A stretch of DNA of 64,000 nt. Source: Centroscyllium fabricii. Lineage: Eukaryota. Location of the stretch: positions 32,922,001 to 32,986,000 of the forward strand of contig JBNRSN020000026.1 of assembly GCA_051313645.2 (NCBI GenBank), written 5' to 3'. The translations under genes and the position numbers were made by a program. A model generated the notes under the pieces. It had not been told where the DNA came from and did no database searches. It saw nothing but the letters and a program-made list of their open reading frames with translations. Each line of letters begins with the position of its first letter. Position 1 is the stretch's first letter. Of this stretch, positions 11,343-17,074 are shown one piece after another.

Positions 11343-11443
11343 CCTTGAGAAGACCTTTTCCCCAATAAAATTCAGGTGGTGTATCCTTTTCTGCAGTCTG
11401 ACTTTGTAGAGAAGTGTTTGAAGAGTTAATAGTTATTCCACGC

Positions 11444-11744
11444 TGTGATAAACCACTGTTTATCATCGTATTGTATATATACTTAATCCACCTGTATAGA
11501 TGTAATCGTACCCAATACCATGTACCTGTATATAAACCGGTGACACGATTACTGGGACATGCCCAGGTCGGCTCCGCCCACGACTCCTCCCTCCCAGGAG
11601 GGGGTATATAAGTGGCAGCCTCCCATCCCCCGGCCATACCTGGGGACAGTCGACTAGCTGGTGTGTGTCCCACCTTTTAGTTAATAAAAGCCGCATTGTT
11701 TCTCTACTTAACTACTCGTCCACGAGGTCGTTATTTCGGTCACA
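11444..11744 (+). repeat. 5' LTR
   Basis: TG...CA ends; TATATAA at 11605-11611; AATAAA at 11683-11688; 4 transitions versus the 3' LTR. Confidence 0.96.
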
Positions 11745-11767
11745 ATTTTATTAACTAAATTTTGAAG

Positions 11768-14700
11768 ATGGACGCCATGCTCAAGCCAGCGACGTTCGAA
11801 TTGGACCCCCGAACACCAGGTGCATCAAACACCTTCACACACTAGCACAGTGGCTTTGATGCGTACCTAAAAGCGAACGCAGCGGTCGTGGTGACCGAAG
11901 AGGACAAACGACGGCTCCTCAACGCCCGGGTGGGCCCTCAGGTGTACTCCATGATCGTGGACGCATCATCCTACTTCGATGCCATCAGGATCCTCAAAGC
12001 TGAGTACAACCGGGCACCCAATATCGTCCACGCCAGACATATCCTTGCCACCAGGAAGCAGCAACCCGGTGAGTCCAGTGTGGAATTTCTAAGAGCGCTG
12101 AGAGTGCTTTCGCGGGCCTGTGACTGCAGAGCGCAAACGGCCCCGGTCCATGCGGACAGCCTCATCAGAGATGCGTATGTAACAGGCATCAGGTCGGACT
12201 ATGTAAGACAGAGGCTGTTAGAACAGAACGGCCTTGACCTGCAGGCAACCGCGGATCTGGGAAACGCGCAGGATGTGGCCTCGCTAAATCTCTCATCCTA
12301 CTCCAGCAACTATACGGGCCCAGCCCCGTCATCTTGGACAACGCCGGCGCAACGGCCGGCAGAAGAAATGATCGCAGCCGCTCACGCGAAGACGGCTAAA
12401 TGCTACTTTTGTGGGCAGTCTCAGCACCCGAGACGTAACTGCCCGGCTAGAGAAGCGGCCTGCTCGAAATGTGGAAAAAAAGGACACTATGCTAAGGTCT
12501 GTAAGGCGACCACATCAACCACAAAACCGAAACCGGGCAGCGCCGCGTGTGGAACATGGGAGCAGCCATATTGGACTCAACCATCCCCCACTCGGTACCC
12601 CTCGTGGCAGCAGTCGCCATATTGGACCCAGCCACCCCCTCCGCAGTACACCGCATGGCGGCAGCCATCTTGGGGACCGGCCCCGGAGGACTACTCTTCG
12701 GATCAAGAAGAATCGGCTGACCCAATACTGGCATCAGTGACTCTTGATCAGGACAAGGCCCAATCGCTGGGGAAATCAATGATGCCTGTTGAAGTAAATG
12801 GACAAGAAGTGGTGTGCCTTTTCGACAGTGGGAGCACGGTGAGTTTCATTAATCCCGAGACAGTACAGCGCCTCTCCCTTAAAGTTATACCAGCGCGCCA
12901 AAGAATTTCGATGGCTTCTAAGTCAGAATCTGCGGACGTCTCCAGGCGTTGCGCAGTAGCACTAACTGTTCAGGGCGCGCTCTTCGATAATTTCAGTTTT
13001 TTCGTGCTGCCGCAGCTCTGCGCCCCATTACTCCTGGGCCTGGACTTCCAGTGCCACCTCCAGAGTGTTACCATGGCGTTCGGTGGGCCCCTTCCCTCGC
13101 TCACGGTCAGAAACCGCAGCTCAGCGCAGCACCCCCGACACACTACCTGTGGCCTCTCGATCCTTAAGGTCGCCCCTCCCTCTCTCTTCGCCAACCTCAC
13201 CCCAGACTGCAAGCCCGTCGCCACCAAGAGTAGGCGCTACAGTGCTGGGGACATGGACTTTATTAAGTCCGAGGTGCAGCGCCTCCTGAAAGAGGGGGTC
13301 ATCGAGGCCAGTAATAGCCCCTGGAGGGCGCAGGTAGTGGTGGTCAAAACCGGAGCGAAGAACCGGATGGTTGTGGACTACAGCCAGACCATAAACCGGT
13401 TCACCCAATTAGATGCCTACCCCCTTCCCCGGATAGCGGACATGGTGAACCAGATCGCACAGTTTAGGGTGTTCTCCACCATCGATCTCAAGTCCGCTTA
13501 TCACCAGCTTCCCATCCGCCCAGAGGACCGTCTCTATACAGCCTTCGAGGCTGACGGTCGCCTCTACCATTTTCTTAGGGTCCCGTTTGGCGTCATGAAT
13601 GGGGTCTCGGTCTTCCAAAGGGAGATGGACCGAATGGTCGATCGGTACGGGCTGCGAGCCACTTTCCCGTACCTCGATAATGTGACCATCTGTGGCCACG
13701 ACCAGCAGGACCATGACGCCAACCTCCAGAAATTTCTCCACACCGCCAAAACACTTAATTTGACCTATAACACCGAAAAGTGCGTGTTTAGTACCACCCG
13801 CCTGGCCATCCTCGGCAGTGTTGTGGAGAATGGGGTCATCGGTCCCGACCCAGACCGCATGCGCCCCCTCATGGAGCTTCCCCTCCCCCACTCCCCCAAG
13901 GCCCTTAAACGCTGCTTGGGATTCTTTGCGTACTATGCCCAGTGGGTCCCCAATTACGCGGACAAAGCTCGCCCACTGCTTAAGTCAACCTCTTTTCCCC
14001 TGTCCGCAGAAGCCAGCTCGGCGTTCTGCGACATTAAGACGACATTGCTAAAGCCACGATGCACGCTGTGGACGAGTCCGTCCCGTTCCAGGTTGAGAGC
14101 GATGCATCTGACTTTGCCCTGGCCGCCACCCTTAACCAGGCGGGCAGACCCATGGCCTTCTTCTCGCGTACCCTCCAGGGCCCCGAGACCCGTCACTCCT
14201 CAGTCGAGAAGGAGGCCCAGGCCATCGTTGAAGCAGTGCGTCACTGGAAGCACTACCTGGCCGGCAAGCGTTTTACTCTGTTGACTGACCAACGATCAGT
14301 CGCTTTTATGTTCAACAACAAAGAGCGGGGTAAAATAAAGAACGACAAGATATTAAGGTGGAGAATTGAACTCTCTGCGTTCAACTATGATATCTTGTAC
14401 CGGCCCGGGAAATTTAACGAACCCCCAGACGCCCTATCCCGCGGTACCTGCGCCAGCGCACAGACAGACCGCCTCCAAACCTTACACAATGACCTCTGCC
14501 ACCCGGGGGTCACCAGGTTGGTTCACTTTGTGAAGTCCCGCAACCTCCCCTACTCCATCGAGGAGGTCAAGACCCTGACCAGCAACTGCCAGGTCTGCGC
14601 GGAGTGCAAGCCGCACTTCTGCCGGCCAGACCGGGCGCACTTGATTAAGGCCACTCGCCCCTTTGAACGACTCAGCGTCGATTTCAAAGGGCCCCTTCCC

Positions 14701-15732
14701 TCCTCCAACAGGAATGTGTACTTCCTTAATGTGATTGATGAGTACTCCCGCTTCCCTTTTGCCATCCCCTGCCCGGACATGACCTCCGCCACCGTCATCA
14801 AAGCCCTCAATAGCATCTTCTCCCTGTTCGGCTACCCCAACTACATTCATAGTGACCGGGGGGCGTCCTTTATGAGTGACGAGCTGCGTCAGTTCCTGCT
14901 AGCCAAAGGCATCGCAACTAGCAGGACTACCAGCTACAACCCCCGGGGGAACGGACAGGTAGAGAGGGAGAACGCCACTGTCTGGAAGGCCATCCTGTTA
15001 GCCCTACGGTCTAAGAGCCTCCCAGTCTCCCGATGGCAGGAAGTCCTCCCCGAAGCGCTCCACTCTATCCGGTCCCTCCTGTGTACCGCCACTAATGCCA
15101 CCCCTCACGAAAGACTTTTTGCCTTCCCCAGGAAGTCGGCTTCCGGGACCTCGCTACCATCGTGGCTGCTATCCCCGGGACCGGTCCTACTACGGAAGCA
15201 CGTGAGGGGACACAAGGCAGATCGCCTGGTCGAACGGGTCCACCTCCTGCACGCCAATCCACAGTACGCCTACGTGGCGTTCCCCGACGGGAGGGAGGAC
15301 ACAGTGTCCATAAATGACCTGGCGCCAGCGGGAGTCCCCAAACCCAGCCCCGCCCAGCAGCCCAAGCACCCAAGAAGCCCCGCCCAGCAGCCCGCGCACC
15401 CAAAACGCCACCCCAGCCACAGGCGCCAAGGTACGCTCCCCGGCACGTGGACCCAGTACCCCAGTACGCCCACACGGCACCTGCGAGCAGCACGGCATGG
15501 CCCCCAGCTTGGCTCCACAGCGCACGCCCCCTAGAGTCAGAGGACGAAGGAGAGAGCGCGCCCCCTGCTGTCAGCATAAGGGCACCACCACCCAGAAACC
15601 TACCAACGACCACCACTCGCCAACCGGCACTGGCACCACCACGACAATCGACCGGCCACCCCGCGACCACGGACACCAGCGGTGCGACGCTCGACAAGGA
15701 TCACCAGACCGCCGGAGCGACTTAACTTATGA
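11768..15732 (+). pseudogene. Gypsy gag-pol, disrupted
   Basis: ATG 11768 in frame with ORF 11888; TAG at 11843-11845; two CX2CX4HX4C knuckles; protease LFDSGS; RT IDLKSAYHQ, PFG, YLDN; frameshift near 14040; RNase H ESDASD; integrase HHCC and DDE (VDFKGP, SDRG, GQVERE); tail RRSTRITRPPERLNL* ends at 15732 after further frameshifts. Confidence 0.92.
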
Positions 15733-15788
15733 ATTAAGAACTTTTTCCTTTCACCCCGCCGGACTTTTGTTTTTAAAGAAGGGGTGAA

Positions 15789-16089
15789 TGTGATAAACCA
15801 CTGTTTATCATCGTATTGTATATATACTTAATCCACCTGTATAGATGTAATCGTACCCAATACCATGTACCTGTATATAAACCGGTGACACGATTACTGG
15901 GACATGCCCAGGTCGGCTCCGCTCACGACTCCTCCCTCCCAGGAGGGGGTATATAAGTGGCAGCCTCCCATCCCCCAGCCATACCTGGGGACAGTCGACT
16001 AGCTGGTGTATGTCCCACCTTTTAGTTAATAAAAGCCGCATTGTTTCTCTACTTAACTACTCGTCCATGAGGTCGTTATTTCGGTCACA
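15789..16089 (+). repeat. 3' LTR
   Basis: Direct repeat of 11444-11744, preceded by the PPT. Confidence 0.96.
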
Positions 16090-16108
16090 CACGCCAACTA
16101 CATTTAAT

Positions 16109-16163: not shown

Positions 16164-16184
16164 GCTTACAAAGTTAAGAAAGTA

Positions 16185-16657
16185 CAGGTTGAGCACCGTT
16201 AATCCGGCACGGGCGGGACTAGGCCCGTGCCGGGGAAGTGAAAATCGCGAACGATTGAAGCTTTGGCGAGCACATGCGCAGACCATTCAAAATGGCCGCC
16301 GCAAAAGGCCGACGGCCATTTTGAGTGGTCTGCGCACGTGCTTATCGTTCGGGAGGCCTGGCTCTCGCAGCGGCTCGGGGAGATTCGCAGCGGCCAGGCT
16401 CGGGGAGACTCGCAGCGGCCAGGCTCGGGGAGACTCGCAGCGGCCAGGCTCGGGGAGACTCGCAGCGGCCAGGCTCGGGGAGGCAATTTTATATAATCTG
16501 CGCATGCGCTCGCTGTTCGGCGGCGCATGCACAGATCATTCACCGAAGCATTGATCGCGGTGGCCGTTTTGCGCATGCGCAGGACAGTCGGGGAAATTAT
16601 TGCCAGACGTTCGAAGTTGCCAGTTTTTGAGGTAACGGATTAACGGTGCTCAACCTG
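16185..16657. mobile_element. Tigger/pogo-like MITE (type A) with a 25-bp tandem repeat x4
   Basis: TIRs present; unit CTCGCAGCGGCCAGGCTCGGGGAGA. Confidence 0.88.
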
Positions 16658-17074
16658 TCGTAACTTTATTTACAAACAAGTAACACAATGACATAACAAA
16701 TGGCAAATAATAAAAGTGCAATATACCTATAACATAAACACAAAGAATGTCCAGAATGGGTTAATTACCACTAATGAGAACTTCTACTGATTTAGTCCAA
16801 ATGTGTCTGCCAGATTCATGTACAATGTTCTTGTTACTCTGTTGGAAATTCAGTTTCCTTTTTGACCGCCAGCACAATCTTCTGCATTTGAGAAATTTGC
16901 AATCGCTCCAGCCCCACACATTTCAAAGTAACCTTCTGTAAGGTCTGCTGTTAACTGCTTATATGTCAAAACCAACATTTCTGCAAGATCTGAATGGCTG
17001 CCTTTGCAGTTGAAACCAAATGTCCCGAGCAGCCTTTCAATTAACATGCATAATAGTTTCTTAAATCAAATAGT

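Follow-up and report, generated by a model that had tools for sequence, protein, structure and literature searches.

To our knowledge, self-priming by an LTR retrotransposon has been worked out only in Tf1 of fission yeast, and among Gypsy elements it is regarded as a mark of the Tf1/sushi group. Published accounts describe Tf1 and Tf2 of S. pombe, Tj1, and Tf1/sushi elements as having no tRNA site and a primer site complementary to their own 5′ LTR (PMC10085805, PMC7175516, PMC4600332). Self-priming has also been predicted from primer-site/LTR complementarity in the Tcn1 clade of moss chromoviruses and in the TAR lineage of plant Ty1/copia elements (Houba, Osr-1), and TAR, as described, indicates that self-priming can arise outside Tf1/sushi (PMC6317226). 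For the dictyostelid Skipper elements, which are Gypsy chromoviruses without TGG, the available account gives a polypyrimidine tract and no complementary LTR region (PMC5006619). Self-priming itself is already known from Tf1/sushi, Tcn1, and TAR.

The DNA analyzed here (the window) is a 64,000-nucleotide stretch of Centroscyllium fabricii contig JBNRSN020000026.1. On its plus strand it carries a young Gypsy element of ~4.6 kb (4,646 nt, 11444–16089), flanked by the 5-bp target-site duplication CACGC (11439–11443 and 16090–16094). The 5′ LTR (11444–11744) and the 3′ LTR (15789–16089) are 301 nt each, have TG...CA ends, and differ from each other by 4 mismatches. Between them lie a gag-pol region (11768–15732) with zinc knuckles, protease, reverse transcriptase (RT), RNase H, and integrase, and a polypurine tract (15775–15788) with a T run directly before it. 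Pfam recovers protease, RT, RNase H, and integrase in Gypsy order, with the zinc knuckle below the cut-off, and the best solved-structure match for the RT is that of Ty3. LTRs, target-site duplication, polypurine tract, a gag-protease-RT-RNase H-integrase order, and no env place the element in Ty3/Gypsy. This copy of gag-pol is broken by a stop at 11843–11845, a frame change at ~14030–14045, and stops at 15532 and 15577. Its RT active-site motif is YLDN (~13670–13685).

Past the 5′ LTR come a single A (11745) and then TTTTATTAACTAAA (11746–11759), which is the exact reverse complement of the 14-nt LTR segment TTTAGTTAATAAAA (11676–11689). Two claims of a preliminary description of this DNA, that no TGG follows the LTR end at 11744 and that the primer-binding position is instead complementary to an AATAAA-bearing part of the LTR, are thereby confirmed. 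The AATAAA (11683–11688) is the sole AATAAA or ATTAAA in the window LTR. A second copy of the segment lies in the 3′ LTR (16021–16034), with no primer site downstream. When the LTR was dinucleotide-shuffled 20,000 times, the longest complement anchored at most 3 nt from the LTR end was 11 nt (reached 3 times), and none was 12 nt or longer. Complements of at least 14 nt occur at 204 of 63,654 real window positions (0.3 per cent), which probably reflects the window's many inverted repeats. The global fold of 11630–11790 is unremarkable (z-score −1.37); the pairing signal is positional, not energetic. An Rfam scan of 11400–11900 with E-values up to 1 gave zero matches. The element has no tRNA-type primer site, that is, one that starts with TGG and complements a tRNA 3′ end. 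The TGG at 11769–11771 was rejected as such a site, as it belongs to the start codon context and lies 24 nt from the LTR. ARAGORN made three tRNA calls on all DNA examined, a set that did not include the host genome, and the best match among them to the window primer site is 7 nt.

A primer site complementary to the element's own 5′ LTR, together with no TGG, is the combination by which Tf1/sushi elements are recognized, and as far as the published accounts describe them, the likeness extends to the clade of the window element. Unlike Tf1/sushi chromoviruses, however, the window clade has no chromodomain and does not fall among chromodomain elements in our trees. The Tf1 primer is given as the first 11 nt of the RNA, whereas the corresponding segment in the window clade is predicted to lie 30–40 nt inside the transcript; no three-duplex pretzel of the Tf1 kind was detected in the window clade, in which a poly(A) hexamer ends the segment and a hairpin follows it immediately. 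Tcn1 and TAR belong to other lineages and hosts, whereas the window clade is a chromodomain-less Gypsy clade with named animal homologs. Absence of TGG is common to Skipper, as described, and the window clade, but LTR complementarity is found in the latter alone. The details that would make the mechanism distinct, namely an internal primer, a cut at the poly(A) hexamer, and masking of that hexamer, are predicted.

Our literature search, from which Repbase, GyDB, and most subscription journals were excluded, returned no paper that describes self-priming for an animal Gypsy clade without a chromodomain, a result that does not establish absence from print. The Cigr-1 clade of Ciona and molluscs is a candidate match, with short LTRs and one ORF of ~1,200 codons, like the window homologs. 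Cigr-1 is presented as a non-Mag animal clade in a paper whose main text contains neither 'PBS' nor 'primer' (PMC6238403). An animal clade that differs in geometry and lacks a chromodomain would, as a second case, allow a natural comparison of how RTs cut their own RNA and use it, and it has a bearing on which is ancestral, tRNA priming or self-priming. Self-priming elements would also evade control by tRNA fragments and go unnoticed in annotation that depends on a tRNA site.

A homolog search returned 496 homologs from 7,996 candidates. The best-scoring named ones come from sharks and rays, and other named ones come from cnidarians, a sea cucumber, insects, and Trichinella. Among the 120 homologs listed (P0001–P0120), many are a single ORF of ~1,200 residues, and the last position of the RT motif is N (F/YxDN for YxDD) in 78 and D in 38, with no motif in four. 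Self-pairing was seen with both the N and the D forms. Of 533 metagenome loci, a 62-sequence alignment yielded 80, along with 16 from genome contigs, which look eukaryotic in those records; two scans of viral contigs found no relatives. The gag N-terminus was matched in 51 loci and the window. Setting aside tRNA-type outgroups (L088, L092, L093), loci with short upstream DNA (L024, L039), and L055, whose gag is truncated, left 46 loci. One representative per 80 per cent RT cluster gave 23 families with RTs 41–69 per cent identical, although two representatives (L084 and L085) are actually one LTR family. In the set of 23 used for the second helix and for promoters, L003 and L014 take the place of L085 and L073.

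Complementarity between primer site and LTR is a trait of the clade. When the longest stem upstream of gag was sought without a preset motif, most clade loci gave one register, AAA|RCC ... CAA|TTT. At least 11 of the first 14 primer-site bases pair with the LTR in 41 of the 46 loci. The remaining five are L020, L038 (truncated by the contig end), L073, L074 (with an exact stem of 10 bp), and L080. Three loci read at contig ends (L024, L039, L041) also have primer sites that pair with the LTR; L024 was rejected as an in-clade exception with TGG, as its TGG sits in the spacer. In 21 of the 23 representative families, 11–14 of the 14 primer-site bases pair with the family's own LTR, in a register that starts one base past the LTR end. 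Positions 1–13 form Watson–Crick pairs in 19–21 of these 21 families, the spacer position does so in none, and pair position 7 takes all four pair types. The mean own-LTR match of the 23 representatives is 13.0 of 14 bases, compared with 11.0 in the best of 100,000 swaps, and the duplex energy is −13.0 kcal/mol for own, −3.9 for swapped, and −2.6 for shuffled pairs. Primer sites share a loose consensus, so that 37 of 506 swapped pairs also reach at least 12 bases, and the own LTR is strictly best in 16 of 23 families. Where the LTR end was set independently by an LTR pair (14 related loci, seven LTR families), an A/T run follows it and never TGG; in loci without an LTR pair, the junction was chosen by a CA-N-pyrimidine pattern, and the absence of TGG there is therefore not independent. 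Eleven outgroup elements with LTR-like repeats, eight of them with TGG sites, match their own LTRs over just 4–7 nt; the outgroup loci yielded no chromovirus with self-priming as a positive control.

The same covariation is found within young families. Compared with seven sister copies at 1.1–1.7 per cent divergence over ~1,350 nt, L009 has both partners of pair 7 changed, and the change is present in both LTRs and in the primer site. Two further double changes separate L002 from L006 and L042 from L077, at 10–18 per cent divergence. In the window family, the common variants 11682 T>G and 11753 A>C affect pairing partners; both occur in three of the four sequencing runs aligned, unphased, and they are the variants seen within the two arms among the variants listed. 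A variant at 11675 (T>A) would add a fifteenth pair. One-sided changes occur in close pairs at seven loci (L005, L013, L019, L042, L048, L060, L069), and that of L013 is in both LTRs. Two matched substitutions at ~1 per cent divergence are expected if the primer is copied into the new primer site, and we infer that they are harder to explain by selection on a hairpin alone. Such copying is not general, as Ty1 reportedly does not inherit its primer sequence. Covariation of primer site and LTR among family members, the first check that the preliminary description had proposed, thus holds across families, against swaps, and in double changes within families; across families, relatives do not lose the complementarity without compensation. 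The proposal of tRNA-independent priming is supported accordingly, and self-priming of some form is very probable from this comparison of primer sites with LTRs.

A short second helix begins at the first base after the LTR segment. An RCC with a GGY partner is present in 18 of 23 families, compared with a null mean of 6.8, and the summed helix length over the 23 families is 100, compared with a null mean of 65 and a maximum of 84 in 2,000 shuffles. In the window, this hairpin takes the form of GCCG (11690–11693) with CGGT (11737–11740), which is not significant in that copy alone (P-value = 0.36). Neither an upstream hairpin nor pairing between the 40-nt stretches that precede the segment and follow the primer site beats shuffles over the 23 families; the window alone has strong leader pairing (−26.9 kcal/mol). 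No conserved structure to halt plus-strand copying was found in the 23 families.

We favor, at a rough probability of 55 per cent, the reading that the 14-nt LTR segment, and not a tRNA, primes the minus strand, through a copy internal to R that would be cut at AAA|GCC. Transcription would begin near 11636, leaving the segment ~40 nt inside R. The 5′ copy would fold onto the primer site and close a 56-nt loop, with the RCC...GGY hairpin alongside. A cut at the AAA|GCC junction (predicted after 11689, ±1) would provide a 3′-OH, probably through the element's RNase H, as in Tf1; the RNase H domain is present and its activity putative. RT could then copy from 11745 back to 11690, taking in the 55-nt LTR remainder, and the 10–30 nt between AATAAA and the poly(A) site would serve as homology for the first strand transfer. 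Plus-strand synthesis would carry the primer sequence over into the new primer site, a step that would account for double changes in near-identical copies. The duplex may also hide the 5′ poly(A) hexamer, the 3′ copy being without such a partner. A counterpoint to an internal primer is that ~40 nt would be left unpaired 5′ of the segment.

The internal position of the primer follows from promoter prediction, a weak indication by itself. The TATA box at 11605 (11605–11612) named in the preliminary description is present, and TATA-like words also occur at 11474 and 11529. The one at 11529 was rejected as the promoter, and that at 11605 preferred, because the former is altered in most of the depth of sequencing run X1; 11605–11612 has no variant among the 40 variants listed. 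Taken with consensus sequences and spacing, the predicted TATA box and an initiator-like CCATACC at 11634–11640 would put the start at ~11636 and the segment at +41 to +54. Under the strict Tf1 geometry, transcription would instead start at or just before the segment, and the primer would be the first 13–15 nt of the RNA. That arrangement is the mechanism described as demonstrated for Tf1 (PMC7175516) and leaves no 5′ extension to remove; a clear TATA box is present in just 2 of 23 families, and the 21 without one within ~100 nt have no such box fixing the start elsewhere (the match of L004 at −64 is in flanking DNA or unclear). One contig, L038, starts exactly at the first base of the segment (positions 1–13), which may be chance. 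Against the Tf1 geometry, none of the 23 families has a TATA word 25–35 nt before the segment. The TATA boxes lie at −71 from the segment in the window and at −61 in L019, with initiator-like words ~30 nt later (at −31 in L019). Nor were the two flanking duplexes of Tf1 detected in the 23 families, as 254 and 137 of 300 shuffles, respectively, were as low, although short helices could be missed by this comparison. We regard the strict Tf1 geometry as unlikely.

Polypyrimidine-plus-AG words are visible by eye 20–60 nt before the segment in five loci (L025, L050, L051, L073, L094), some with 5′-splice-like words further upstream. These could be LTR introns, which would also put the start well upstream. 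A primer built by splicing was rejected: the segment is contiguous in the LTR, splicing is unneeded, and a crude 3′ splice-site pattern occurs in 4 of 23 families.

The primer could also come from the 3′ LTR, whose segment (16021–16034) is identical in sequence. In that case, the 3′ end of the RNA would fold back to the primer site, and the cut at AAA|GCC would drop the poly(A) tail, let the 3′ end of the entire genomic RNA act as primer, and leave the full 5′ R for transfer. The poly(A) hexamer at the segment end guarantees that the 3′ copy is transcribed, the transfer homology would be longer, and the 5′ extension would pose no problem. However, in most families 24–68 nt separate the 5′ copy from the primer site, with which it is predicted to pair at a probability of 0.96 in the window, so that it would form the duplex first, and the literature, as far as it was available, offered no precedent. 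Priming by the 3′ copy is improbable in our assessment, and the 5′ copy within R remains the preferred primer.

The LTR arm of the duplex ends at AAA|RCC, and AATAAA or ATTAAA stands at the segment end in 14 of 23 families. A second hexamer between segment and primer site occurs in just 2 of 23 families. In the other nine, the duplex is kept with near variants in place of a canonical hexamer in the copy examined, and three of these read a canonical one in the primer-site arm. When the window RNA is folded from the predicted start, the hexamer has an unpaired probability of at most 0.03 in the 5′ context and of 0.13–0.77 in the 3′ context. The preliminary description had suggested that the duplex could mask the 5′ poly(A) signal while leaving the 3′ signal free. 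Its first part is consistent with the hexamer's lying within the duplex in 14 families and being predicted fully paired in the 5′ context; it does not extend to the nine families without a canonical hexamer, and the 3′ copy is predicted to be partly paired rather than free. Masking is thus a plausible second role of the duplex, as judged from predicted folds, and it would explain how a signal in R is used in one LTR only. It may also be a by-product, as the geometry of self-priming alone puts the hexamer near the cut. A hairpin that only regulates the nearby start codon or hides the 5′ poly(A) signal, with priming in trans by a host tRNA fragment or another RNA, is very improbable. In its favor, the segment ends in a hexamer in 14 families, usually the sole one in that part of the LTR, the distance between primer site and start codon is 14–44 nt in 22 of 23 families, and the primer sites share a loose consensus. 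Against it, the 3′ arm is locked one base past the LTR end, where priming must begin, the duplex is present without a canonical hexamer in nine families, ~20 different primer-site sequences each track their own LTR, and a double change at ~1 per cent divergence is hard to obtain by selection on two independent mutations.

That no chromodomain is evident, as previously noted, was borne out by Pfam on the window's integrase tail. None was found in six clade proteins either, and PF00385 is absent among the 120 homologs listed; the same scan was positive in 12 of 41 outgroup fragments. At the ends of three Gypsy integrases (L117, L159, L177), a PHD finger is present in place of a chromodomain. Outgroups for the phylogenies were fetched by a degenerate RT pattern, and the trees contain neither Tf1 nor sushi. 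Self-pairing elements come out as a long-stemmed group with 100/100 support, separate from the chromodomain branch, both in the RT tree (46 rows) and in the RT-RNase H-integrase tree (34 rows, with 10 dropped). A branch of the RT tree with support of 97/93 joins the clade's side with five elements, three of which have TGG, but these neighbors are unsettled in the longer tree. Union of the clade with one chromodomain subgroup is rejected (approximately unbiased [AU] test; P-value = 2e-7), as is union with ten rows of the chromodomain branch (P-value = 0.002), whereas a sister position to the wider chromodomain branch is not rejected (P-values = 0.081, 0.079, and 0.19). Of the RT phylogeny that the preliminary description had proposed as a check, the separation from the chromodomain branch stands, and a position as its sister stays compatible with trees that lack Tf1 and sushi. 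The clade, not being nested among chromodomain elements in these trees, is not filed as Tf1/sushi, and a shared ancient origin of self-priming with Tf1/sushi is not rejected by them. We can only tentatively suggest the fuller scenario, in which a widespread animal Gypsy clade evolved self-priming independently of Tf1/sushi and in which one duplex would silence the poly(A) signal of the 5′ LTR and then be cut at the hexamer end, beside the hairpin, to yield an internal primer.

Several minor observations concern the loci surveyed. Many of L081–L176, in records titled as bacterial or archaeal genomes, carry eukaryote-type LTR retrotransposons, probably through host contamination. L166, in a record titled as a Wolbachia chromosome, is an LTR element whose 231-nt repeats are identical and not directly followed by TGG, and no self-pairing was found in it. 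At one contig end of L017 (positions 140–240), the LTR end and primer site are duplicated by an insertion of ~55 nt that contains an inverted repeat, and the other end is without this insertion. In the window, a palindromic MITE-like repeat (families D16 and D19) and a 28-nt tandem array occupy 16179–16660, immediately to the right of the element, and the remainder is dense in LINE/SINE-like repeat fragments.
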